From NCBI GenBank assembly GCA_964635785.1, contig CAZWQC010000010.1, positions 1 to 19,656 of the forward strand: a DNA stretch of 19,656 nucleotides, given 5' to 3'. The translations under genes were made by a program, and so were the position numbers. Under the pieces are notes generated by a model that saw only the letters and a program-made list of their open reading frames with translations, made no database searches and was not told where the DNA came from. This document shows positions 5,755 through 18,253 of this stretch, piece by piece. Origin of the DNA: an uncultured Ectothiorhodospiraceae bacterium (lineage in GTDB: Bacteria; Pseudomonadota; Gammaproteobacteria; CAYFSA01). Positions within the stretch are counted from its first letter, which is position 1. Each line of letters starts with the position of its first letter.

Positions 5755-6891
5755 TCAATCCGTTGTGCGGATTCGCACCAGGTCTTTCAATACCCCCTCG
5801 ATCCCGCTATAGACATTGAGCTGGTCGACTTTCGTCACCACGTTCTCCAAGGTTTCCAGTTCCTTCAGACGCAACAGCGTCGGATGGTCGTCCATGAGCT
5901 TGGCGGTGTTTAGCAAGGAGCGGGTCGCGGCGGTTTCTTCGCGGCGTCGAATGAGATTCGCTTGCGATTGCTTTTCGGCCATGACGACTTGATTGAGGAT
6001 CTCGCGCATCTCGCCCGGCAGGACGATGTCCTTGATCCCGGTGGTCAGCAGTGCGATCCCGTGCTCGGCGGCTTTGTTGAGAACTTCATCGAAGATCGCT
6101 TGGTTCAATGTGGATTTGTCGGCCAACAAGGTATCCAGCGACTGGGTTCCGACGGCTTGACGCAATGCCAATTGTAGAGCCAAATAGAGCCAGGCTTTGA
6201 CATCGGTGAGCTGAGTGCGGGCTTTGACCGCATCCACGATGCGGTATTCTGCCGATAGATTCAAACGCAAGCTCACTTTGTCGCGGGTCAAGATTTCCTG
6301 GCCACTGACTTCCATGACCTGTACCCGTTGATCGGTCGTCGGAATACTGATGTGCCGGTGGAAACGCCAGAAACCATGCAGACCAGGTGGTAGCGTGGCG
6401 GTAAAAACACCATCGACCACGAGCAAACCGAGATGGTGGTCCGGGATCTCGATCAGCAAGACTTGTTCGGCTAGCGCCCGCGGTTGAGTGCCGAGTAATC
6501 GTTTGGCGACCGTTGGGGCGACCTGGTAGTCGCTATCGATATTTTGCACAACGGTGCGCACCGCCACCGGCCCACGCCAGAATACGCGTCGGCTCCCGGG
6601 CGGCAAAATATGATTGAACACCTCGTCGTAATAGACGATTCCGACTTCGTTCGATCCCAGGCGGACTGGTTGTAGGTGCTCGGCACAGCCCGCGCGATTG
6701 TGTTGTACCCAAAAATCGGCTTGGGCATGCGGGAAGACAGGGTCGTTAATGTCGCAGACCTGCACAGCCCGACGACCAAACGGATTCCAGAGGTGATAAA
6801 CCCCCGGCGTCAAGATCTTGTGCAAAGTGCGATCTTGAAATAACAGGCCACGCTCATGGTCGGCGATGACGATGCGTTGGTAACCGAACAT
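5755..6891 (-). CDS. SPFH/band-7 (slipin-family) protein with an N-terminal duplicated beta-rich domain
   Basis: The C-terminal ~200 aa carry SPFH-domain signatures such as ILTRDKVSLRLNLSAEYRIVD and GIALLTTGIKDIVLPGEMREI. I placed the start at ATG 6891-6889 (MFGYQRIVIADHERGLLFQ...). The supplied track extends the ORF to a TTG at 7011, and another ATG occurs at 6927. None of these has a clear SD. The gene is convergent with radA. Confidence 0.7.
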   Translation of the reverse strand: MFGYQRIVIADHERGLLFQDRTLHKILTPGVYHLWNPFGRRAVQVCDINDPVFPHAQADFWVQHNRAGCAEHLQPVRLGSNEVGIVYYDEVFNHILPPGSRRVFWRGPVAVRTVVQNIDSDYQVAPTVAKRLLGTQPRALAEQVLLIEIPDHHLGLLVVDGVFTATLPPGLHGFWRFHRHISIPTTDQRVQVMEVSGQEILTRDKVSLRLNLSAEYRIVDAVKARTQLTDVKAWLYLALQLALRQAVGTQSLDTLLADKSTLNQAIFDEVLNKAAEHGIALLTTGIKDIVLPGEMREILNQVVMAEKQSQANLIRRREETAATRSLLNTAKLMDDHPTLLRLKELETLENVVTKVDQLNVYSGIEGVLKDLVRIRTTD

Positions 6892-7215
6892 AACGACGAT
6901 CCGTGCAAAAGTTAGCGGGAACGACATGAAAAAAAGCGCCACGGCCTCACAGCCTGGACACGGATGACAAGCGTCGGGAAAGCGGTTGCCAGGCGGCACC
7001 AAGACCTGCAATCCGCACTACCACCGCGAATCGATGGCCTCGGCGCCGGCCGGGCGAACCCACAATCTGTCAGCAAGTCATACAAGGCGTTCAGGGTGCT
7101 GCGCTACCGCCTTACCTGGCAGGCTTGCCTCCTTGGCGGTTTACGCCGAGGCCGTGCGCCGAGGTACAGCAAAAGGAAGCGGGCACGGAGCCCATGGCTT
7201 GATAGGCCATTCCAA

Positions 7216-7290
7216 GGTGTAGACAGGAGGAATCGAACCTCCGCCCACTCGAATGAAATCGAGTGCTCTATCCGACTGAGCTATATCCAC
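7216..7290 (-). tRNA. tRNA-like gene with canonical acceptor, D and T arms but an abnormal anticodon arm (7-bp stem with 6-nt loop, or 5-bp stem with 8-nt loop). Anticodon assignment is ambiguous; candidates are CAU or UCA.
   Basis: The reverse complement reads GTGGATA-TA-GCTC-AGTCGGATA-GAGC-A-CTCGA-TTTCAT-TCGAG-TGGGC-GGAGG-TTCGATT-CCTCC-TGTCTAC-A-CC. The acceptor stem has 7 bp, two of them G-U pairs. The D-arm is GCTC/GAGC with the conserved AGTCGG sequence. The T-arm is GGAGG/CCTCC with a TTCGATT loop. The variable loop is 5 nt and the body is 73 nt. CCA is not encoded. Confidence 0.6.
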
Positions 7291-7667
7291 GGGTGTTGAA
7301 CGACGACAGACACGCGGAACACACGGACACAATGTGTCGTGCGCCAGACGGGCACACCGAACCCGTTATCGCAGTCGTGTTAGCCGTTGGTTCAACTTGG
7401 TACGTCGGTCAAGTATTGAACTTGGCGCGGTGGTGTCCCCGACCGAGACCCGACGTATGAAATATTTTTATAAGATCTTTGGTTCCCGCCCCCCCCATGT
7501 TGGGGAGGGGCCAGGAATTGAGGTTCCGATCACTTAAGCAAACATCAATATCACAGAGCCTGATAGGCTAGCCAATACTCGGCCGTTGTCAATATTAATC
7601 GTTTCAAAAGTTCTCACATCCCTTTCCCGCAGGGGGGAAGGAATGCGAGAGACGTTCCTGCAAAAAC

Positions 7668-7692
7668 TCATCGTCAGTCACTGACGAGCCAA
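7668..7692 (-). terminator. Possible intrinsic terminator for the DUF3108 gene: hairpin CGTCAGTGACTGACG followed 5 nt later by UUUUU on the minus strand
   Basis: A 6-7 bp inverted repeat at 7678-7692 is followed on the minus strand by ATGAGTTTTTGC. It lies ~115 nt downstream of the DUF3108 stop at 7807. The spacer between the stem and the U-run is longer than ideal. Confidence 0.3.
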
Positions 7693-7806
7693 CCCGCGGC
7701 GATCGTCACGAAACGCCGTGGCAAACGTTGAACAGGTTATCCGCGCTCGCCCTGACCCGATCTGTACGCTACGTGGCATAGGGGCACCAGAACAAACTCG
7801 AGCTCA

Positions 7807-8661
7807 CTAACCATTGATCTTTGCATCGAGCAATAACAACTCGCCCTGATCGCCATTTTTCTCGCGGTAGAGCACCCGAACAGGCAAGTAAGCCATTGTG
7901 TAGGAGAGCCAAAACGTGGTCGCGCGTTGGTGATTGTGGTGCTCGCGTTGGACGACCAGGGCGAGGAAACGTCCGGCCGGCGTTTCGACTTGTTCTTGGC
8001 CATGGCGGTGGAATAGCCATTGGCGATGCTTGCCGTAGGCGACGATAGGGTAGGAGAGGGTATCTCGGCCCGCGGCAACATCGCGCATGACCGCAAGTTC
8101 TAGGGTCATGCGATCGAGAACGCCCGGTTCAATGGCGAACTCGTTCTTGTCGCCCCGGTGGTTGGACCGGGCAACGCGGTTTTCCCAGTCGAAACGAACC
8201 TCTTCCTCACGGACTCGTCCGCCACCGGTATGCCGGTATTCGAACGCGAGGGGTTTGAACTCATTGTCCTCGAAGAGCGTGATGGCACGCTCATGAATCC
8301 GGTCGTTGCGGATCAGAGCCAGGATTCCCTTGGCCTGACTGTCACGCTGATAAATGATGCGGCCATCGGCAGTACGGCTCATGCGTACTTCGGCCTCGCC
8401 GACTTTGAATCCGTTAAGCCGCAGCTCATATCGAGCCAGGAACGGCGTGATCCCCGGACGCGGAACTGGTGTCGTCGGTGTCGCCGTACTGGCGTCATCG
8501 ATGGTGGGCGCATTCGCCGCAGGGCTTGCCGAGGCGAAAAGCGGTCCGCAAACCCAGAGGATGGCCAATGATAACGCAAAGCGGGAGATCACCGGCGGCA
8601 GGCCGCCCGCTCGATCTTTCTGGTTGCTCGGCAATAGTCCGTACAACGATCCGATAGACAT
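7807..8661 (-). CDS. DUF3108-family secreted or periplasmic protein
   Basis: This is the maximal ORF, 284 aa from the ATG at 8661. An internal GTG at 8592 would give a canonical signal peptide (MISRFALSLAILWVCGPLFASA|SPA), so it is the more plausible start. The mature region has the YELRLNGFKVGEAEV and IVAYGKHRQWLFHRHGQE motifs typical of DUF3108 proteins. Confidence 0.6.
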   Translation of the reverse strand: MSIGSLYGLLPSNQKDRAGGLPPVISRFALSLAILWVCGPLFASASPAANAPTIDDASTATPTTPVPRPGITPFLARYELRLNGFKVGEAEVRMSRTADGRIIYQRDSQAKGILALIRNDRIHERAITLFEDNEFKPLAFEYRHTGGGRVREEEVRFDWENRVARSNHRGDKNEFAIEPGVLDRMTLELAVMRDVAAGRDTLSYPIVAYGKHRQWLFHRHGQEQVETPAGRFLALVVQREHHNHQRATTFWLSYTMAYLPVRVLYREKNGDQGELLLLDAKING

Positions 8662-8964: not shown

Positions 8965-11262
8965 TCATGGTTGGAAAAATCGGTAACTGTTGCGGCCGTC
9001 TTGCTTGGCTCGATACATGGTTTGGTCGGCATGCCGGAGCAGCGTGTCGGCATCCCCTGAATCAATTGGGTAAATCGTCACCCCAATGCTGGCCGAGATC
9101 TGTGCCCGTTCGCCTTCGATTGCGTACGGTTCGGCGATGCGTGCAAGGATGCGATCGAGGGTTTCGATGACGCGGCTCGGGTTGTCCAAATCGCCGAGTA
9201 GGACGCAGAATTCGTCGCCGCCCAAGCGAGCGACCGTATCGCTTTGTCGGACGCTGGCATTCAGTCGCTGGGCGACGGCCAATAACAGTTCGTCGCCGGC
9301 TTTGTGTCCGAGGGTGTCGTTGATGGGTTTGAAATTGTCGAGGTCGAGGTAGCAGACGGCGAGTAAGCGATGATCTTTCGTCGCGTTGGTCAGACCATGG
9401 GCGAGCCTTTCCATCAGCAGGCGGCGATTCGCCAACCCGGTGAGGGGGTCGTAGTAAGCCATTTGCTTCAATTGGTTCTGGCTAGCGTACAGTGCATCCA
9501 TCGCTTGTTGCCTGCCAACTGCACCGCCAATCAAGTTGCCGAGATAGCGTAATACCAGGGCTTCATCGTGGGTCCAGTGCCGCGCCTTGGAACTGGTGGT
9601 CAGTGCAATGCAACCAAGCAGGTCTTCGCCGAAGGTGACTGGGGCTGTCAATAGCGAACGAACCCCGCGGCTTTGCAAATAACGGCGTTCATCGGCCGGG
9701 ATGGTCACGGCGTCGGTAATGTGTGACAGAACGACGATTTCGCCTTGCTGTAACGGCTGTAACGCCTTTGGCAGCATTTGCGGATCCAGAAAAAACTGAC
9801 CATCGTTGGGCTTCTTCGGCGGTTTTTTGTCCCATACGTAATGACGGTGGGTTGCCTGACCGGCTGTATCGAACAAAAGTATACCGCATCGTTCCGTGTT
9901 GGTTTCTTCACCAATTAGCGTCAGCGCCCGTTCGATCATGGCGGCCAGACTGAGTGTTTTGTTGTTGAGCAGATGAGCGGAGATTTCGGTTAGGCGAAGT
10001 TCCAAGTCGGCCCGGTAGCGGATTTCGTTTTCGAGGTGGATGCGCTCGGTCTCATCACGGCCGACTGCGTAAATGAGTCTAGTATCGAGAAATGCCCGGG
10101 CTGACCAAGCGATGGTGCGATAATGACCGTCACGGCAACGCCAAGCCGTTTCAAACGAATAGACTTGACGGCCGGCGAGAATTTGCTGAATCGCTTCGCG
10201 CGTGCGGGTGATATCGTCGGGATGGAGGAACTCGACGATCGACCGATTCAGGATTTCCTCGGTAGCGTAGCCGAGGATGTTTTGCCAGGCCGGATTGGCG
10301 CGAACCAGGTATTCATCCGGACCGATGACACAAAACAAATCCAAGGCCAACTCGAAGAACTGGTTTTGGGCTTCCAAGGTCAGTTCACGTTCGGTGATAT
10401 CTTGCACTGTGCCGATGCGGCGAATCGGCTGCCCGTCGGTAAACTCGGTATGGCAACGTTCGTAGACGTGTTTGATGCGGCCATCGGGCAGCACGAGCCG
10501 ATATTGGTAATGCCAGTCGGGTTGTCGGTCGGCTGCGAGGTCGTGTTGATAAATCACCCGACGGCGGTCACCTTGGTGAACGCGTTGGATAAACGCCGCG
10601 AAGCTCGGCGTCGTGTCCGGGTCGATCTCCCAGATTCGATACAACTCGGCAGACCACCACAACTGCTTTTGGTGCAGATCATGCTCCCAGTTGCCCAGAC
10701 CGGCGACGCGCTGGGCTTCATTCAGTAAGGCTTGCTGGTGGGCGAGTTGTTGTTGATAGTGATAGCGCGCGTGGATATCGCGGACTTGCACGAGAATGCC
10801 GCAGATATTGCCTTCATTATTGAGCCTGGGCGTATAGCAAATTTCTTGGCGGCGGTGTTGGCCGTCACGATGGGGGCAAAATGCTTCGTAAACCACTCGT
10901 GTGCCGTTAAGGCAGCGCTCGAGATTGGGTTTGACTTGGGTTTCGTAGAATGGCTTCGGTATGACCTCGCTGACGTGCCGGCCAATGGTTTGTTGCAATG
11001 TGCGGCCCCATGATCGCAAGTAGGCGCGATTGGCGGCGCGATAAATGAAGTCGCGGTCAAGCGCGGCAAATCGATCCTCGCTTTGTTCGATCAGCTCCCG
11101 ATAAACCCCGAGCGTGTTGTTATCACCGCGGTTTGCCAACGCTATGGCTTGCTCAGTAGGGTGGCCGCATTGGTACGCACCCTGTGCCGGGTTGCCAAGG
11201 CGAGGTCTGGGCTGATTGGCTGCGCAAGGGTTGTCGGTGCTGGTGTAAGACGGCGTTGTCAT
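8965..11262 (-). CDS. PAS/PAC-PAS-GAF-GGDEF diguanylate cyclase with an intact GGDEF motif and an RxxD I-site
   Basis: The C-terminus reads YDPLTGLANRRL...CYLDLDNFKPINDTLGHKAGDELL...RQSDTVARLGGDEFCVLL, which is a complete GGDEF domain. A GAF-like region and at least two PAS/PAC modules lie upstream. I used the ATG at 11262 (MTTPSYTS...). The supplied track extends the ORF to a TTG at 11340. Neither start has a clear SD. Confidence 0.85.
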   Translation of the reverse strand: MTTPSYTSTDNPCAANQPRPRLGNPAQGAYQCGHPTEQAIALANRGDNNTLGVYRELIEQSEDRFAALDRDFIYRAANRAYLRSWGRTLQQTIGRHVSEVIPKPFYETQVKPNLERCLNGTRVVYEAFCPHRDGQHRRQEICYTPRLNNEGNICGILVQVRDIHARYHYQQQLAHQQALLNEAQRVAGLGNWEHDLHQKQLWWSAELYRIWEIDPDTTPSFAAFIQRVHQGDRRRVIYQHDLAADRQPDWHYQYRLVLPDGRIKHVYERCHTEFTDGQPIRRIGTVQDITERELTLEAQNQFFELALDLFCVIGPDEYLVRANPAWQNILGYATEEILNRSIVEFLHPDDITRTREAIQQILAGRQVYSFETAWRCRDGHYRTIAWSARAFLDTRLIYAVGRDETERIHLENEIRYRADLELRLTEISAHLLNNKTLSLAAMIERALTLIGEETNTERCGILLFDTAGQATHRHYVWDKKPPKKPNDGQFFLDPQMLPKALQPLQQGEIVVLSHITDAVTIPADERRYLQSRGVRSLLTAPVTFGEDLLGCIALTTSSKARHWTHDEALVLRYLGNLIGGAVGRQQAMDALYASQNQLKQMAYYDPLTGLANRRLLMERLAHGLTNATKDHRLLAVCYLDLDNFKPINDTLGHKAGDELLLAVAQRLNASVRQSDTVARLGGDEFCVLLGDLDNPSRVIETLDRILARIAEPYAIEGERAQISASIGVTIYPIDSGDADTLLRHADQTMYRAKQDGRNSYRFFQP

Positions 11263-11535
11263 CGGTTTAGCCCAATGCGAACTGATAAGTTTAGTATCGT
11301 CGCCTTCGTCGGGGTAAGCAATTCGGGAAAATACTTGCAACGAACTAGGCAGAGATGGTCAAGCGGATGGTCTGTTGCAATCGTCGCGAGATGGTTCGGC
11401 AAACCGGGTTAAATGTCGGTTGTATACCCAGGCAAATTGCGATGTTATTAGTTTTTTGAGAGCTTTTCGGTGTTTTGAGCTGGATATGCCAGTGCAATAC
11501 GCGTGTGGTTTAGCCGTTCGGCTAGCGCTGGCTTC

Positions 11536-11574
11536 TGCAAAAAGCGATATGGCAGGCTGCCAGTTTGTGATCGC
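11536..11574 (-). terminator. Intrinsic terminator downstream of the FixL-like kinase gene
   Basis: On the minus strand the sequence reads GCGAT-cacaaact-GGCAG-cc-TGCC-at-ATCGC-TTTTTGC. This is a compound hairpin followed immediately by a U-run. It lies ~75 nt after the stop at 11647. Confidence 0.55.
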
Positions 11575-11646
11575 TTAAGTCTTTTGGGCAAGTGTGTGGT
11601 GACAGGGGAAGCGCGCAGACACTGGCGACGGTGGCCGGGCGATGGT

Positions 11647-13218
11647 TTACGGGTTCGCTTGATACGCTGGCGCATAAGGCAAAGTAAAAGCAATGCAGGC
11701 GCCAGGGTCGCGATCGGGGTCTCGATGCTCGAGCCAAAAGCGACCGCCGTGGGCCTCGATAATCGCGCGGCAGACCGCCAAACCGATGCCGGTGCCGGCA
11801 GTGCGGTTTGTGATGGCGCTGTGCAGGGCAACACCTTGATAACCCGGTGGGAGCCCTGGACCGGTGTCGGCAACCGTGATGCGGACCTCGTTGGGTAAGG
11901 GTGTGGCGACGATGTCAATGAGTCGCCTGGGCGTATTGCTGCGGGAAATGGCGTCGATCGCGTTTTGTATGAGATGCAGTAGCACCTGCTCGCCTTGTGC
12001 CGGGGTAATCCATAGCCGTGGCGTGTCGTTGGGAATGAACGTGCGAATTTGGATGCGCCGGGCATCCGCTTGGGCTTTGATGTGCTCGATCGCGGACATG
12101 CACAATTCGGCGCAGACGACAAGCTCGGGTTCGGGTTGGCCACGGCGAAAAAGATCGCGGGTTTGAGCGAGTATCTGCCCGAGTAAGTGCAGTTGTTCGG
12201 CGGCTTGTTGGAGGGGCTCGGTCAGATCGGTTGAGACGTCGTTACCAGGGAGCAGTCGTTCCGAGAGCATTTCCAGGTGTAGCCCGGCGGCCGTCATGGG
12301 TTGCGCGAGTTGTTCCACCAGCGACGTCACCAATGTGTTCATGGCTTCGGTTTTCTGAGCGTTGGCCATGGCGCGACGGCGTCGGGCGATTTCTTCTTCG
12401 GCGAGCTTGCGATTGGTGATGTCTTTGTGAACGATGACGGCACCGGAGAAGGCCGTTTGCCTCAAGGCAGTGACCGTAAACTCAAACCAGCGGGTCCGTT
12501 GTGGGCCGATGCAGGCGTACTCCATCATGAAGTGGTCACGTTGACTGGCTAAAACCAATTGGATGCCCTGATAGGCACGCATCGCGTCGGCATCACCGCT
12601 TGCCGCGGATTGTTGACAGACGGCGAGGTAATCGATGCCAAGCCCCTCTTGCAGGGCGATCGATGCCCCGTTCGTCCGTGCGGTCTGGCGCCAGCGGTCG
12701 TTGACCAAGATGATGTGGCCGTGCGCGTCGATCACCACGATAACGTCTGGAAACGTATTTAAGAACCTTTGCTGAAAGGCTTGTTGCTCGGCGAGCTGTT
12801 GTTCGGCTCGCCATTGTGGCAGGGGATCGAGCATGACCCCGATGCAGCAGCTGCCGCCGGTTCGGTGCGGTCGTGTCGACATTAATTGAAAGGCTTGCGC
12901 CGCGATGCTGGCATGGCGAGGTCTGAGCATGAGTTTGTGCCGGGTTTTGGCGGGCGCCGCGAATACGCGGCGCAGATGGTCGATAAACGGTTGGTAATCG
13001 CCAGCGGCGAGGTGTTCGTGAAAGGCGGCCTGCAGCAGTGTCTGTGGTCGCTGTCCGAGTAGCTTGGCACCAGCCACATTGATTTGCCAGATTCTGCCTT
13101 GCGTATCGAGTAGTACGCGACCGATGGGCGCGAGGTCGCACAAGGGTCGATCACAATAGGCCAAGTGACAGGGTTGGTTTGCCGGCGTGCTTGTCTGTGT
13201 GTCGGTTGGCTCGGTCAT
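11647..13218 (-). CDS. FixL-family PAS-PAS sensor histidine-kinase homologue in which the H-box phosphoacceptor His is replaced by Glu; the HATPase_c domain is intact
   Basis: Two PAS domains are followed by a dimerisation/H-box region, EAMNTLVTSLVEQLAQPMTAAGLHLEML. This aligns residue for residue with the FixL H-box SAMGEMASALAHELNQPLAAI, with E at the His position. I confirmed the reading by translating the DNA directly. The ATP-binding motifs are present: the N-box (VLLHLIQNAIDAI), G1 (VADTGPGLP) and G2 (GTGIGLAVCRAIIEAHGG). I chose the ATG start at 13218; a GTG alternative lies at 13308. Confidence 0.8.
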   Translation of the reverse strand: MTEPTDTQTSTPANQPCHLAYCDRPLCDLAPIGRVLLDTQGRIWQINVAGAKLLGQRPQTLLQAAFHEHLAAGDYQPFIDHLRRVFAAPAKTRHKLMLRPRHASIAAQAFQLMSTRPHRTGGSCCIGVMLDPLPQWRAEQQLAEQQAFQQRFLNTFPDVIVVIDAHGHIILVNDRWRQTARTNGASIALQEGLGIDYLAVCQQSAASGDADAMRAYQGIQLVLASQRDHFMMEYACIGPQRTRWFEFTVTALRQTAFSGAVIVHKDITNRKLAEEEIARRRRAMANAQKTEAMNTLVTSLVEQLAQPMTAAGLHLEMLSERLLPGNDVSTDLTEPLQQAAEQLHLLGQILAQTRDLFRRGQPEPELVVCAELCMSAIEHIKAQADARRIQIRTFIPNDTPRLWITPAQGEQVLLHLIQNAIDAISRSNTPRRLIDIVATPLPNEVRITVADTGPGLPPGYQGVALHSAITNRTAGTGIGLAVCRAIIEAHGGRFWLEHRDPDRDPGACIAFTLPYAPAYQANP

Positions 13219-13353
13219 GTTCGGTGTTGAATCGCTAACCCCGCTGAACGGATCGCGAAAACGGCTTCGTCGGATGAAAGTCGCGACGAGGCGGTCCGTC
13301 GGCGCCACGGTAAAACGCCGCTACGCCAACGGGCCGCCAGGTTTTCGGGTGAT

Positions 13354-13665
13354 TCAACCGGCGAAATGGAAGAGCCGATCGATACCTGCCGCCGACATCC
13401 GATGGCGAAACTCCGGCGGGCAGTGCAAGAGATAGACTTGTTGTTGCGCGGCTTTGGCGCGGCGATGGAGGTTGAGTAACAAGGCCATACCCGAATCACG
13501 CAGTTGCTTGGTTTCGCGTAGATCGACCATGACGGTGCCGATGGTCTTGGCTCGCATCATGTGGGTCACTGAGCGCATTAGCGCTGATCTGGAAATATCG
13601 AGTTCGTCACCGACATCGACAATAACGGCGTCACCATGTTGAGTCGCTTGAGGTGTATGGGGCAT
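13354..13665 (-). CDS. STAS-domain protein (SpoIIAA/RsbV-like anti-sigma-factor antagonist) with the conserved phosphorylatable Ser
   Basis: The 103-aa product contains DAVIVDVGDELDIS...GTVMVDLRETKQLRDSGMALLLNL...VYLLHCPPEFRHRMSAAGIDRLF, which matches the STAS fold. Its DSG motif corresponds to DSSG/DSTG in SpoIIAA/RsbV. An AAGGAG SD lies 8 nt upstream of the ATG. The gene ends 45 bp upstream of the kinase-like gene on the same strand. Confidence 0.75.
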   Translation of the reverse strand: MPHTPQATQHGDAVIVDVGDELDISRSALMRSVTHMMRAKTIGTVMVDLRETKQLRDSGMALLLNLHRRAKAAQQQVYLLHCPPEFRHRMSAAGIDRLFHFAG

Positions 13666-13950
13666 TGATGCGTCTCCTTTGGTATTCGCTTGTCGTCGGA
13701 ATCAATGAAATACTGGCTTAAACGCGCCAGCGCCTGCAGTACTGCCATCATCGCTGACGACGCGATGATGCGGTTTCGTGCACAGGCAATGGTGTCAAAG
13801 TATAACGATCGTTGGCAATCAGGGAATCCGTGCGAATACGGAGTGGTGTGGTCGCGGTGCAGCGACCAGCGCCCGGCCTAGGCGACTGCAAGACCGAGGC
13901 CGCATTGGCGATTCGATGCGAGGCGCGAGCGATCATTGGCAAGCTGATCG

Positions 13951-14604
13951 CTAATCAAAGTCGTTGCGAGCGTGAATCTCGGCGATATGGCAGAGCTCGG
14001 CGAGTTTGCGTACCTTGAGTTTTCTCATCAGATGAGCGCGGTGGCTTTCTACGGTGCGATGACTGATATCGAGTTGGCGCGCGATTTCTTTGCTACTTAA
14101 GCCGGCGAAGGTAATGAGGCGCATGATTTCCAGCTCACGAACGGTGAGTGTTCCGACCAGCGCTTGAATCGATTGGGCATCGGCGGAGGGTGCATTGGGC
14201 GGGTTTGTGGGTCGCTCCGAAGTGGCCACCTGATCGTGTTCTGCCATGACTTCTTCGATGCGGTCGACGAGCTGGCGACGAGTGAAGGGTTTTTCGATGA
14301 AGTCCGCGGCACCGCCTTGCATGGCACGAACCGTTGTTGGGATATCGCCGTAACCTGAGATGAAGATGCAGGGTAGCGTATAACCTTTGGCGCGAAGATT
14401 GGCTTGGACCTCGATGCCGGTCATGTCGGGCAGGCGAAGATCGATCACCAGACAACCGGGCTGTGGCGTTTGATAGAATTCAAGAAAATCGGTGCCGGTG
14501 GGAAAGGCTTGGACGCTGTAACCGGATTGCGACAAGGCGATGGTCAGCGCTTCGCGTAGCGGTTTGTCATCATCAACCAGAAAAATGCTCGGTCGTTGGC
14601 GCAT
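13951..14604 (-). CDS. FixJ/NarL-family response regulator (REC domain plus LuxR-type HTH)
   Basis: The receiver domain has the acidic pair (FLVDDD), the phospho-Asp (LVIDLRLPDMTG), the conserved Ser (ISGYGD) and the conserved Lys (IEKPF). The LuxR HTH reads LTVRELEIMRLITFAGLSSKEIARQLDISHRTVESHRAHLMRKL. I preferred the ATG at 14604 because AAGGA lies 8 nt upstream. The supplied track's ATG at 14667 would add 21 residues to the N-terminus. Confidence 0.85.
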   Translation of the reverse strand: MRQRPSIFLVDDDKPLREALTIALSQSGYSVQAFPTGTDFLEFYQTPQPGCLVIDLRLPDMTGIEVQANLRAKGYTLPCIFISGYGDIPTTVRAMQGGAADFIEKPFTRRQLVDRIEEVMAEHDQVATSERPTNPPNAPSADAQSIQALVGTLTVRELEIMRLITFAGLSSKEIARQLDISHRTVESHRAHLMRKLKVRKLAELCHIAEIHARNDFD

Positions 14605-14965
14605 CGGTTTTCCTTTATGCTTGCCCGCGTCGTGACGGCGGCAGTGACATGGCTGGTATGGGCACAACCGGTATCGCGTGACCTGGTGCTATGGCGCATG
14701 CGGGTTGCCTCGGCGAATAATCCAAAAAAACGCCGGTTCTGCGTCAGTCCTGCTTGCTGATGTTGCACTGCACGATGGTGACCGGTAACGCCCATGACGG
14801 GTAAAATGCGCTGTTACGGTCGCTGCCTGGTGCCTAGTTGCAAGCGCCCGAGTATATCGGTTATTCCACCGAGAATGAAGCCGCAGGTCTGTGGAAAAGA
14901 GCGATTTGGTCGGATGTTGAACGCGTTTGCCGGGTGGTCATGTTCGCATGGTTGCGTTAGCGCTT

Positions 14966-17900
14966 TTAGCCCTCCCGTCGAATTGCCGGGCCTTGCGCAT
15001 CAATGTGGGTTTTTTCGGTGGGATCGGCTGCTGCGGTTTGTAGGGCGTGATCGAGAAATGCCTTAAACGGCATGGGTCGGCCAAACCAGTACCCTTGAAA
15101 GCGCTGACAACCGATGCTCAAGAGAAAATCGAGTTGTTCGGGTCGCTCTACGCCCTCGGCGATGACCGGTAAAGACAGGGCTTGGGCCATGCTCATTGCG
15201 GCACGGACGATAGCGGCATCGCTCGGGTCGGTGTCGACGTCGCGGACGAGGGTCTGGTCGATCTTGAGGGTGTTCAGCGGCAAGTATTTCAACTGGGCAA
15301 GGGATGAATAGCCGGTACCGAAATCATCCAGCTCGACTTCGATCCCCAAGGTTTGCAGTTCGCTCAAGATGTTTTGGGTGCGGGCGAGATCGGCAAACAG
15401 CGATCCTTCCGTGAGTTCTAAATGTAACCGTGTTGTGGGTGTGCCATATTTTGCGACGGTGGCTTGGACTTGCTCGACGAAATGCGGCTGGGCGAGTTGT
15501 CGGGCACTGACGTTCACCGAAACGCATAGGGACGCGGTGTGAGGATAGCGTTGGAGTGTTTGTAAATCGGCGCAGGCGGCGTTCAGGACCCATTCGCCGA
15601 GCGGCAAGATTAAGCCGGTTTCCTCCGCCAGGGGAATGAACTCGCCGGGGGATACGGTTTGTCCGTCGGGGGTAAACCAGCGCAGCAGCGCTTCGGCACC
15701 CAGCAAATGGCCGAAGCGGTCGACTTGGGGTTGGTAAAACAATTGAAGTTCGTCGTGGTCGAGCGCTCGCCGCAGGGCGGCGGCTAGGTTTGCCCGCTGA
15801 TCGATGGCGCGTTGCATCTCGGTACTAAAAAATCGAATCGTGTCGCGACCGGCCCGTTTGGCCGCAAACATGGCGACATCGGCTTGTTTCAGCAGATCAT
15901 CAACGTTACTGCCATGGCCGCAAAAAAGAGCGACACCGATGCTCGCAGAGCAATGGAAGGCTTGGTCGGCACCGTGGAGGTCATAGGGTTTACGCAAGAC
16001 GTCAAGCAGTTGTTCGGCGATGCGTTCGGCATGAACGGCCGCTTGTCTTTCGTCTTCACCAAGCTGTTCGCAAAGCAAGATGAATTCATCGCCACCGAGG
16101 CGTGCGGCCGTATCGGTCGCGCGTAATTGCTTGCGCAGGCGCTGGCCGACCTGGACGAGCAGGGCATCGCCGGCACTGTGGCCGCGGGTATCGTTGAGTG
16201 TCTTGAATTCGTCGAGGTCCAGCATGAACAGAGCGCCGTACTGTTGATCGCGTTCGGACTTGATCAAGGCGTGTCGGAGTCGTTCAAGTAACAGCCGACG
16301 GTTGGTCAAATTAGTGAGTGGATCGTAAAACGCCAGGGCGTGAATTTTTTTTTCCGCTGCCTTGTTCTTGGTGATGTCGAAAAAGGTGCCGACGTAATGC
16401 GTGATGACACCCGCGTGGTTTTTGACGGCGGTAATCGATAGCCATTCGGGATAAACGTGCCCGAGTTTGTTGCGGTTCCAGATTTCACCTTCCCAAAAGC
16501 CGGTGTGGTTGAGATGGTGCCACATGGTTTGATAAAAGCTCGGGGCATGACAACCCGATTGCAATAGCCGGGGGTTTTTGCCAATGACCTCGTCGCTGCG
16601 GTAGCCGGTCACTTCGGTGAAGGTATTGTTGACGCGCTGTATGTTGCCTTTGGCATCGGTGATGGTGATGGCAACCTGGGCTTCGAAGGCGATCGCGGCA
16701 AGCCGGGAATCGGTTTCGGCTAATCGCTGTGCGGTATTGTCGAGGTTGATGCCGGTAACACGAACGGGTTTTCCGTTCAGATCGCAGACGCTGCGGCAAT
16801 AGGCTTTGATGTGACGGGTTTCGCCGTCGCCACGCAGCACGCGGAACTCCGCCTCGTGCGGCCCTTCGCTTTCGCGTGCGTCGGCATGCATGCGTTCGCT
16901 GTCGGCAAGATCATCCGGATGAATCAGGGATCGCCAGAGGGCGTGGTCGATACGGTCGTTGGCGCTAAGCCCGTACAACGCGCGCATGCGATGATCCCAG
17001 ACCAATTGTCCCGATTCGATTTGGTCGTCCCAAATGCCGAATCCGGCCGCGCCGACAGCCAAGGCAAGACGCTCTTCGCTTTGCCGTAGGGCTTCGCGGT
17101 GATGGATGGCGTCAACGGCGAACGAGAGGTTGCCTGTCATTTTGTCGAGGAGTTGGGTTTCCTCAGGACCGAAGAAGTTCGATTCGGTGGCGTATATCGT
17201 GAATACGCCTTGAATGTTGCCTGACCAGCACAGCGGGAAAGCGGCGGCGGCGGTGATGTGGTAGCGTTTGGCGGCTTCTGCCCAGATGGCCGTGTTTGGC
17301 GCGGTTTGAAAATCGTTGACGATTTGGATCATGCCGTCGCGAAAGGCACGGCCGGTCGGTCCTTGGCCTTCGGGTCGATCGCCGTGCACGGAAATGCGAA
17401 TGGCCTGCAGATAATGCGTGTTGCCGCTGGCCGCCGCGATTTGCATCCAGCCAGCCGCATCGGGTTTGCCGACCCAGGCTAAGCTGAACTCCCCATGTTT
17501 GACCGCGGTCCGGCACAGTGCCTCGAACAGGGCTTGTTCATGCGAAAAATGCAAAATGGCGTGATTGGTTTCACTCAAGGTTGCGTACAGCCGCTGCCGG
17601 CGGCGCAATTCGACTTCGGCGCGGCTGCGGCTGATGGCGTAGCGAATGGAACGGATCAAGTTGTCGGCAGTGAACTCACCCTTGATCAGGTAATCCTCGG
17701 CGCCGGCTTCGAGTGCGTGCAACGCATTGGTTTCATCCGTGTTTGCCGTCAGAACGATCAACGGCACATCCGGGGCGAGTAGGCGCAGCTCGAATACGGT
17801 TTCCAGGCCGCTGGTATCCGGCAAGCCGAGATCGACGAGCAACAGCTGGACCGGTTGTTCGGCGAGTAGGGTTTTCGCCTGGCCCAGGGTGGGCGCCCAC

Positions 17901-18010
17901 AAGACCTGCTGGACAATTTGATGATGTCGCAGGATGGCTTCGACAAGCTTGGCGTCGCTCGGTTGATCCTCGATCAAAAGCGCGATGGAATGGTCATTGA
18001 AGGCTTGCAT
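14966..18010 (-). CDS. Hybrid REC-GAF-PAS-PAS-GGDEF-EAL protein, predicted bifunctional for c-di-GMP synthesis and hydrolysis
   Basis: The N-terminal REC domain has the phospho-Asp (LLLVDLGLPD) plus LTANTD and LIKGE. A GAF domain and two PAS/PAC domains follow. The GGDEF domain reads RATDTAARLGGDEF, with an RxxD I-site. The EAL domain has the catalytic motifs EALLRW, ELTEGS, DDFGTGYSS, KIDQTLV, AEGVE and QGY. I used the ATG at 18010; a TTG alternative lies at 18031. Confidence 0.9.
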   Translation of the reverse strand: MQAFNDHSIALLIEDQPSDAKLVEAILRHHQIVQQVLWAPTLGQAKTLLAEQPVQLLLVDLGLPDTSGLETVFELRLLAPDVPLIVLTANTDETNALHALEAGAEDYLIKGEFTADNLIRSIRYAISRSRAEVELRRRQRLYATLSETNHAILHFSHEQALFEALCRTAVKHGEFSLAWVGKPDAAGWMQIAAASGNTHYLQAIRISVHGDRPEGQGPTGRAFRDGMIQIVNDFQTAPNTAIWAEAAKRYHITAAAAFPLCWSGNIQGVFTIYATESNFFGPEETQLLDKMTGNLSFAVDAIHHREALRQSEERLALAVGAAGFGIWDDQIESGQLVWDHRMRALYGLSANDRIDHALWRSLIHPDDLADSERMHADARESEGPHEAEFRVLRGDGETRHIKAYCRSVCDLNGKPVRVTGINLDNTAQRLAETDSRLAAIAFEAQVAITITDAKGNIQRVNNTFTEVTGYRSDEVIGKNPRLLQSGCHAPSFYQTMWHHLNHTGFWEGEIWNRNKLGHVYPEWLSITAVKNHAGVITHYVGTFFDITKNKAAEKKIHALAFYDPLTNLTNRRLLLERLRHALIKSERDQQYGALFMLDLDEFKTLNDTRGHSAGDALLVQVGQRLRKQLRATDTAARLGGDEFILLCEQLGEDERQAAVHAERIAEQLLDVLRKPYDLHGADQAFHCSASIGVALFCGHGSNVDDLLKQADVAMFAAKRAGRDTIRFFSTEMQRAIDQRANLAAALRRALDHDELQLFYQPQVDRFGHLLGAEALLRWFTPDGQTVSPGEFIPLAEETGLILPLGEWVLNAACADLQTLQRYPHTASLCVSVNVSARQLAQPHFVEQVQATVAKYGTPTTRLHLELTEGSLFADLARTQNILSELQTLGIEVELDDFGTGYSSLAQLKYLPLNTLKIDQTLVRDVDTDPSDAAIVRAAMSMAQALSLPVIAEGVERPEQLDFLLSIGCQRFQGYWFGRPMPFKAFLDHALQTAAADPTEKTHIDAQGPAIRREG

Positions 18011-18253
18011 GGGCTGTACGTGTTCGTTCAACTCGGAGTGGGGTCACGGATAAAGTACGCAGTGTAACATCTTGGATCACGTATAACGGTAGCACGATGA
18101 CGCGCGGTTTCAGTGTGACGTTGCCAGCGTACTTGCTGCGTGCGGTGATAAACTGACGGGTGGTTTAGGACCACGGTGCAGGGATCGGTTGGCATCTTCG
18201 GGCTCGACGTTGGGCGCAACCCGGCTTGAGTATGCCATAATGGACAACTTTGG

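Follow-up and report, generated by a model that had tools for sequence, protein, structure and literature searches.

The window analysed here, 19,656 bases that make up an entire NCBI contig (CAZWQC010000010.1) of an uncultured Ectothiorhodospiraceae bacterium, carries on its minus strand, at positions 7290-7216, a tRNA-like gene whose 'anticodon' loop has 6 nt. Our analysis indicates that this element is probably a member of the b7a-tRNA class, i.e., a tRNA-shaped, non-decoding RNA that is encoded, and presumably works, together with the soluble SPFH protein specified by the downstream gene. As summarized in bioRxiv 10.1101/312249, a b7a-tRNA is a non-coding RNA that strongly resembles tRNA and is encoded beside a Band-7 protein and RtcB; the same summary credits the prediction of the class to Burroughs and Aravind in 2016 (NAR 44:8525), mentions a proposed parallel to the YrlA/Y RNAs and describes the class as not experimentally validated. 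Across related loci, selection keeps what determines the tRNA L-shape: the four stems, UAGCUCAG..GGUAGAGCA in the D-arm and UUCGAnU in the T-loop. No such selection is seen on the triplet of the anticodon, on how long the loop is, on a CCA in frame or on pairing at 1:72. In addition, the linkage of the tRNA-like gene to the SPFH gene is near-obligate. Since the stems and the D- and T-elements are kept while the anticodon features are not, the RNA matters for its tRNA shape rather than for decoding, and a loop of 6 nt is tolerated as a variant.

The element consists of the following parts.

7216..7290, minus strand: tRNA-like gene, probably of the b7a-tRNA class (ARAGORN, Rfam tRNA, family covariance model, sequence read)
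7290-7219, minus strand: cloverleaf, followed by the discriminator A (7218) and CC (7217-7216); the next base is U, not A
7263-7259 and 7252-7248, minus strand: anticodon stem CUCGA/UCGAG, closing the 6-nt loop
7258-7253, minus strand: 6-nt 'anticodon' loop UUUCAU (ARAGORN, Rfam, folding, sequence read)

Read on the minus strand, these parts follow each other in the order GUGGAUA-UA-GCUC-AGUCGGAUA-GAGC-A-CUCGA-UUUCAU-UCGAG-UGGGC-GGAGG-UUCGAUU-CCUCC-UGUCUAC-A-CC. The acceptor stem GUGGAUA/UGUCUAC includes a G3-U70 pair, the D-arm GCUC-AGUCGGAUA-GAGC contains AGUCGG in its loop, and a 5-nt variable loop (UGGGC) leads to the T-arm GGAGG-UUCGAUU-CCUCC. An initial annotation made from the letters alone had described a tRNA-like gene with AGTCGG in the D-loop, a TTCGATT T-loop, a 5-nt variable loop and a non-canonical anticodon arm, and had stated that a 5-bp stem with a 7-nt loop cannot be formed. 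The sequence read agrees with all of this, a 5-bp stem with a 7-nt loop being impossible without a mismatch, and both ARAGORN and Rfam confirm the non-canonical gene. ARAGORN, a check that had been suggested at the time, reports this interval as the single gene of the whole window and assigns no standard isotype to it ('tRNA-???' with the 2-base anticodon tc, i.e., a 6-nt loop). The Rfam tRNA model RF00005 matches with 60.7 bits (gathering score 29, E=3.5e-11) and one loop position deleted. The element departs from the canonical elongator pattern (5-bp stem, 7-nt loop, U33, purine 37) in that its loop UUUCAU has 6 nt. Folded in isolation, the anticodon arm adopts a 7-bp stem (A26-U44 included) with the 6-nt loop, at -9.6 kcal/mol, with 93% of the ensemble and z=-5.0; of the arrangements considered earlier, this one is therefore supported, whereas an opened form with an 8-nt loop is thermodynamically disfavoured.

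The context that explains the element is the adjacent Band-7 gene, which lies outside the coordinates covered by the initial annotation. A metagenome scan with an alignment of the SPFH protein provided 80 additional loci, and linkage was counted in those 73 loci whose sequence extends 700 nt or more upstream of the orthologous SPFH gene (43-62% identity). ARAGORN finds a class-I tRNA-like gene on the same strand, 95-625 nt (mostly 300-470 nt) upstream of the SPFH gene, in 68/73 loci. The covariance model adds four of the five loci missed by ARAGORN, raising the count to 72/73; the copy in locus L101 lies at 1,040 nt, past the 700-nt limit. Recurrence at one position in 68-72 of 73 loci is far beyond chance. 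The nearest SPFH homologue (L015, 62% identity) has its tRNA-like gene at the matching relative position (L015:1097-1170), and its acceptor stem differs from that of the window by compensatory changes at 1:72 and 2:71 with G3-U70 retained, followed by homologous downstream sequence. A comparison with orthologues, also suggested earlier, did not restore a conventional tRNA: the 7-nt loop of this nearest relative, GAUCAUC, has A33 and U37 and is likewise non-canonical, and ARAGORN labels the gene 'SeC'. SPFH homologues at 43-55% identity adjoin RtcB, HNH, RlaP and sometimes long tRNA arrays, and each has an upstream tRNA-like gene with a differing 'anticodon'. Among 92 loci, the neighbours include RtcB in 34, HNH in 23 and RlaP in nine, and long tRNA arrays are common. 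RtcB is missing from 19 of the 31 well-flanked family loci (about 60%); an RtcB neighbour is a frequent and not a universal feature of the family.

A species-representative genome collection, scanned for the exact sequence and for a degenerate pattern, yielded no related tRNA; the pattern matched 14 times, by chance and outside tRNAs. Among 2.9 million viral contigs there was one relative, and a phage-borne system was rejected on this count.

To characterize what is conserved in the RNA itself, covariation was measured on a MAFFT alignment made without fitting to a structure. Of the cloverleaf cells, 94.2% are paired, as against 38-48% in controls with slid partners. Double-sided changes occur in 17 of 21 pairs, and all four stems covary, including all five pairs of the anticodon stem. 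The D-stem, the T-loop and the last two pairs of the T-stem are nearly invariant across the family. The anticodon behaves differently. The 65 unique sequences receive 28 different ARAGORN anticodon calls with 14 named isotypes; anticodons for Ser and Leu occur although the bodies carrying them have no long variable arm, triplets with A34 are present (ACU, AUU, AAA, AAU, AAG), and the anticodons of orthologues are unrelated (tc, tca with A33, act, cat and others). U33 is found in only 48/60 copies (non-U in 20%), and a purine at 37 in 51/60. In 75 close pairs with 88% identity or more outside the loop, differences per site amount to 0.55 in the triplet, compared with 0.00-0.10 in acceptor, D-stem and T-arm. 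Values of 0.13-0.18 apply to the anticodon stem and the remaining loops, and of 0.25-0.29 to the loop positions 32-33 and 37-38 flanking the triplet.

An in-frame N73-CCA is encoded in about 9/65 copies as opposed to 185/207 of the other tRNAs that these loci contain. Position 1:72 lacks a pair in 37/60 (C-A in 13, A-A in 11; A2 alignment columns 3 and 77). In many copies a 'CCA' directly follows position 72 and belongs to the stem of the next hairpin. Because of the 1:72 mismatches and the CCA inside this stem, the 3' end of the mature RNA and the length of its acceptor are uncertain. ACCA is fully encoded in two loci (L034, L038). In the window and its nearest relatives, G3-U70 is held while the adjacent acceptor pairs covary, with A73 and CC(A) next to it; G3-U70 occurs in only 7/61 family members. 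Members that have this pair could in principle be charged by alanyl-tRNA synthetase (AlaRS).

Loops that deviate from 7 nt are not confined to the window. Among Band-7-adjacent copies they are found in the window, L051 and L071 (6 nt) and L036 (8 nt), i.e., in 4/66 copies compared with 1/203 of the remaining tRNAs on the plus strand of these loci (p=0.014). With tandem partners included, the figures are 9/80 and 1/193 (p=9e-5), with 6-nt loops in five tandem partners of one subclade. Because such loops are enriched and the loop is unconstrained for decoding, the 6-nt loop can be regarded as a recurrent variant of the family, and on its own it is unremarkable given this context.

The partner gene is located as follows.

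5755..6891, minus strand: gene for a soluble Band-7/SPFH ('slipin family') protein of 378 aa (Pfam PF01145, E=5e-24)

It lies downstream of the tRNA-like gene, in the same orientation and at a distance of about 325 nt. The encoded protein, which is identical to database protein P0001 (100% identity over 378 aa), is complete and can be aligned with its homologues over the whole length. Three N-terminal beta-repeat units, the SPFH domain and a long C-terminal helix make up its layout. No transmembrane segment is predicted, the sequence matches in PDB are to stomatin, and the AlphaFold2 model has a predicted local distance difference test (pLDDT) score of 82. In a Foldseek search with this model, the longest alignments were to the major vault protein (MVP; 421-477 columns, E about 1e-9), compared with fewer than 280 columns for stomatin and HflK. 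NCBIfam returned only sub-cutoff HflK/C matches for this protein, and the PADLOC defence models gave no match for it.

The spacer between the tRNA-like gene and the SPFH open reading frame (ORF) is a conserved structured domain of about 230-280 nt. In the window, this leader contains the following features.

7195..7209, minus strand: anticodon-arm-like hairpin UGGC-CUAUCAA-GCCA with 4 bp and a 7-nt loop (L015/L017 alignment, family comparison, minimum free energy fold)
7193-7181, minus strand: degenerate second T-arm GGGC-UCCGU-GCCC, where relatives have GGGG-UUCGACU-CCCC
7179-7171, minus strand: U-rich tail CUUCCUUUU after the second T-arm (arm and tail together score as terminator-like)
6929..7160, minus strand: large structured leader domain (fold, terminator-like scan, homology to L015, covarying domain in another subclade)

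UUGGAAU directly follows the 3' side of the cloverleaf and precedes the hairpin 7209-7195, which is homologous to a hairpin located before the second T-arm of relatives. A proper second T-arm, GGGG-UUCGACU-CCCC, is present in 30/69 relatives at a fixed offset and usually after a D-loop-like UGGUAA. Judged by sequence, the D-loop-like element and the second T-arm together look like a mimic of the tRNA 'elbow', and the corresponding stretch of the window (7171-7209) makes up a second tRNA-like module behind the cloverleaf. The 324-nt leader of the window folds into one closed domain (z=-2.5). The domain is closed by the helix GGCGCACGGCCUC (7160-7148) / GAGGCCGUGGCGC (6948-6936); U7 (6935-6929) comes directly after this helix and 37 nt before the ATG. 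Since GGCCUCGGCG (7152-7143) could also pair with CGCCGAGGCC (7045-7036), a switch is conceivable. Together with L015 and L017, the window can be aligned in conserved blocks all the way to the ATG. In a subclade of 19 loci (A5 alignment), RNAalifold predicts a long-range helix UCGAGGU/ACCUCGA around nested helices; with the cloverleaf stems counted, compensatory changes affect 38 of the 60 pairs in the prediction. Other subclades have equivalent complementary segments of different sequence, and the U-runs after the helix are not conserved among them. No Rfam family matches the leader region, and a scan of 6700-7850 for σ70-type promoter-like sites detected none. An almost certainly spurious ATG ORF of 111 aa (6964-7299, plus strand) runs antisense to both the leader and the tRNA-like gene, and a gene caller might choose it and mask the RNA.

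The element thus combines the core features of the b7a-tRNA class, i.e., tRNA likeness (the Rfam score and ARAGORN cloverleaf given above) and Band-7 adjacency, and it has a homologous leader, a feature that was defined in this analysis and not in the literature. The family covariance model, which was built without the window sequence, gives it 66.0 bits. As this score overlaps with those of the best canonical tRNAs, family membership rests on synteny and on the homologous leader.

With respect to function, we propose that the RNA would be a cognate ligand or cofactor of an oligomeric SPFH scaffold, by analogy with the Y RNA/Ro60 pair, and that the SPFH-RNA pair may act in a response to RNA damage or translational stress. 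The RNA might present a tRNA-like surface to tRNA-acting enzymes such as the RtcB ligase and the RlaP nucleotidyltransferase; alternatively, it could be a decoy or competitor for tRNA-targeting nucleases. The idea of an SPFH ligand draws on the frequent neighbours RtcB, RlaP, HNH and tRNA arrays and on the Anabaena slipin gene, which shares the TrcR regulon with rtcB and a tRNA array (PMC10272220; PMC8421152). The tRNA-like part would be the head, at the 5' end, of a conserved and structured RNA some 350 nt long, for which action in trans, processing from the Band-7 transcript and a role as cis-regulatory leader were all considered. In the window only the core pair of RNA and Band-7 gene is found. 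A bolder version, in which the RNA of about 350 nt and a cage-forming SPFH protein make up a bacterial ribonucleoprotein (RNP) whose loop is under diversifying selection as a bait or inhibitor of anticodon nucleases, with length variants as functional mimics, appears doubtful to us. If it were true, the 6-nt loop could mimic tRNAs that have been trimmed by a nuclease and re-ligated, as handled by RlaP and RtcB in other genomes.

Several observations weigh against assigning the element to the b7a-tRNA class or against its non-decoding role. The score of 66.0 bits is at the bottom, the family ranging from 66.7 to 90.9 bits and the best array tRNAs reaching 69.5, so that the sequence alone does not set the element apart from canonical tRNAs. 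By tblastn, no RtcB, RlaP or HNH homologue is present in the 19.6-kb window; the RtcB neighbour that belongs to the description of the class is therefore absent here. Although the elbow layout is kept in the window, the second T-loop is cut to 5 nt (UCCGU), and decay or weakening of this copy is conceivable. The loop frame looks canonical in most of the family (C32 U33 ... A37 A38), and on this sequence pattern the loop might have some role, and some members might even be charged. Finally, the features that define the class were taken second-hand from the summary in bioRxiv 10.1101/312249, and no later experimental work on b7a-tRNA was found in the full-text literature.

These points are shared in part by the rival explanation that survives best, namely that the element is a b7a member losing its function in this lineage, with the 6-nt loop as one of several degenerative changes. 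We consider this plausible but unlikely. Its lowest score under the family model, the shortened UCCGU loop in place of the UUCGACU of relatives and the lack of RtcB, RlaP or HNH nearby would all fit such decay. However, the four stems are intact with canonical T- and D-loops, the SPFH gene is full length and can be aligned end to end, and the leader of about 325 nt is homologous to that of L015 and folds stably. The absence of RtcB is shared by about 60% of the well-flanked family loci, and loop length also varies in members that otherwise score high, L051 (74.5 bits) and L036 (73.3 bits) among them.

The constant strand and spacing of the element relative to the ORF, the covarying long-range helices of the leader, the closing helix with U7 shortly before the ATG and the alternative pairing of GGCCUCGGCG with CGCCGAGGCC would also be expected if the tRNA-like fold and the structured region were a 5' regulatory or processing element of the Band-7 mRNA, such as an RNase P/Z signal or an attenuator. 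That the RNA is such a cis-acting leader is improbable in our view: subclades do not share the U-runs behind the closing helix, the scan of 6700-7850 detected no σ70-type promoter-like site that would define a transcription unit, and a leader of this kind would not conflict with a part in an RNP once it has been processed.

A single-base sequencing error had been raised in the initial annotation, and it is true that, through such an error or one of assembly, the U3 homopolymer in the loop of this single contig from what appears to be a metagenome-assembled genome could be short by one base, one more U giving the canonical-looking UUUUCAU with U33, UUC and A37 in frame. This explanation is very unlikely and also needless, since non-7-nt loops recur independently in the family, with 6 or 8 nt in independent relatives. 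All large ORFs of the 19.6-kb contig are intact with full domain sets, so that indels must be rare, and the nearest relative's loop is non-canonical in spite of its 7 nt. Moreover, a homopolymer error would leave the identity of the element unchanged.

The suspicion that the gene does not decode normally is probably right: no anticodon is kept among the orthologues, and U33, pairing at 1:72 or a CCA in frame is missing from many of them. The same facts speak against the further suggestion of unusual decoding or frameshift suppression. A genuine tRNA that works by a doublet or -1 frameshift, by +1 decoding through an opened 8-nt loop or by a UCA or CAU reading would profit from the perfect cloverleaf, and G3-U70 with A73 would in principle permit charging by AlaRS. 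We nevertheless regard it as hardly credible, because the 8-nt-loop form is disfavoured against the 7-bp stem with its 6-nt loop, the CCA is incomplete, and there is neither a shared anticodon nor any decoding constraint at the level of the family. A decaying tRNA or remnant of an integration target, as had also been considered, is contradicted by a cloverleaf that is kept through compensatory changes beside one protein gene, by synteny with a cellular gene and by the lack of any integrase or phage gene nearby among the ten largest ORFs scanned, and the family-level evidence likewise contradicts a generic pseudogene. None of the three explanations offered earlier is the best one, and the element is, on the strength of its synteny and homologous leader, most likely a new and somewhat divergent member of a known, computationally predicted class.

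The remaining genes of the window are ordinary chromosomal ones, encoding hemerythrin, CcsA, CorC/CNNM, RadA and DUF3108 proteins and a signalling block with PAS/GGDEF/EAL, histidine-kinase and LuxR-type proteins. A domain scan of the ten largest ORFs revealed nothing phage-like and no integrase, and there is no tRNA array in the window. The signalling cluster (8965-18031, minus strand) comprises a PAS-GAF-GGDEF protein, a PAS histidine kinase, a LuxR-type response regulator and a REC-GAF-PAS-GGDEF-EAL protein, and has no evident tie to the tRNA-like element.

The neighbourhood varies among the relatives. A cobalamin riboswitch (L015:513-733, minus strand, 114.5 bits) is located upstream of the tRNA-like gene of L015 on the opposite strand; because it is absent from the window, the upstream neighbourhood is not conserved. 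In one subclade, a second, weaker tRNA-like gene abuts the 5' side of the Band-7-adjacent one (tandem pairs in L072, L075, L078, L082, L085, L087-L089, L093, L095, L100 and L102-L105). Arrays of 15-24 tRNAs, most of them encoding CCA, are located upstream of HNH, RtcB and the Band-7/tRNA-like pair (long arrays in L016:17-1285, L028, L036, L042, L044, L054, L064 and L088), and these long arrays resemble the stress-induced L-arrays of cyanobacteria. Possible carriers among tractable bacteria are Pseudomonas aeruginosa PA14, whose rtc locus includes the SPFH gene PaFlo8, and Anabaena (alr0739-alr0740).

Recognition of such genes averts mis-annotation, since tRNA finders label them as tRNA-Ile, -Met, -Ser, -SeC or 'undetermined', after which they could be mistaken for suppressors or pseudogenes. 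The class predicted in 2016 gains a divergent member, and the properties of the family, i.e., linkage to an SPFH gene without a transmembrane segment, covarying stems, a free anticodon, a missing CCA and a long 3' extension, can be used in studies of RtcB-centred RNA repair and of SPFH proteins.

Among known systems, the b7a-tRNA class itself agrees in that the RNA ligase RtcB adjoins the pair in many relatives, while the window differs by lacking RtcB and by its 6-nt loop. The bacterial Y RNAs (YrlA, RF02553, and Yrn1) are also tRNA-mimicking ncRNAs encoded beside a ring-forming scaffold protein, Ro60/Rsr, often in operons with RtcB. Yrn1 of D. radiodurans has a 5-bp 'anticodon' stem with a 6-nt loop, and YrlA of M. 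smegmatis is cleaved by RNase P and gains CCA, YrlB having an additional T-arm (PMC4201824). The cloverleaf of the window differs from these RNAs in being complete and unpermuted with a 7-bp acceptor stem, and its partner is an SPFH and not a Ro60/TROVE protein; a domain scan limited to the window's ten largest ORFs detected no Ro60/TROVE domain. YrlA gave no match in window positions 6900-7800 at E<=10. Its matches in relatives are sub-threshold (30-32 bits against a gathering score of 69) and span tandem pairs in L104 and L105, and identity with YrlA or a Y RNA was accordingly rejected.

The tRNA-like domain of transfer-messenger RNA (tmRNA) is another non-decoding tRNA mimic, and the element of the window shares with alanine acceptors the G3-U70 pair and A73. 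The element differs from it by having no mRNA-like module or tag ORF, and neither ARAGORN nor Rfam detected a tmRNA. Suppressors of +1 frameshifts of the sufD or sufA6 type have 8-nt loops on a defined isoacceptor and keep its identity elements and CCA. The departure from 7 nt is common to both, whereas the element has a stable 6-nt loop, orthologue loops are unrelated, and no parent isoacceptor was identified in the sequence and pattern scans of the genome collection. The L-arrays (PMC8421152) recall the arrays of 6-24 tRNAs, HNH and RtcB that accompany the Band-7/tRNA-like pair in many relatives. The other tRNAs of these loci, mostly array members, regularly have N-CCA (in the 185/207 given above) and 7-nt loops (in 202), whereas the Band-7-adjacent element deviates. 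Finally, the vault RNP, which consists of MVP and vault RNA, offers a parallel on the protein side: as judged from its model, the SPFH partner would share with MVP the beta-repeats, an SPFH-like domain and a long helix, and in the vault, too, a small structured RNA accompanies a cage-forming SPFH-like protein.
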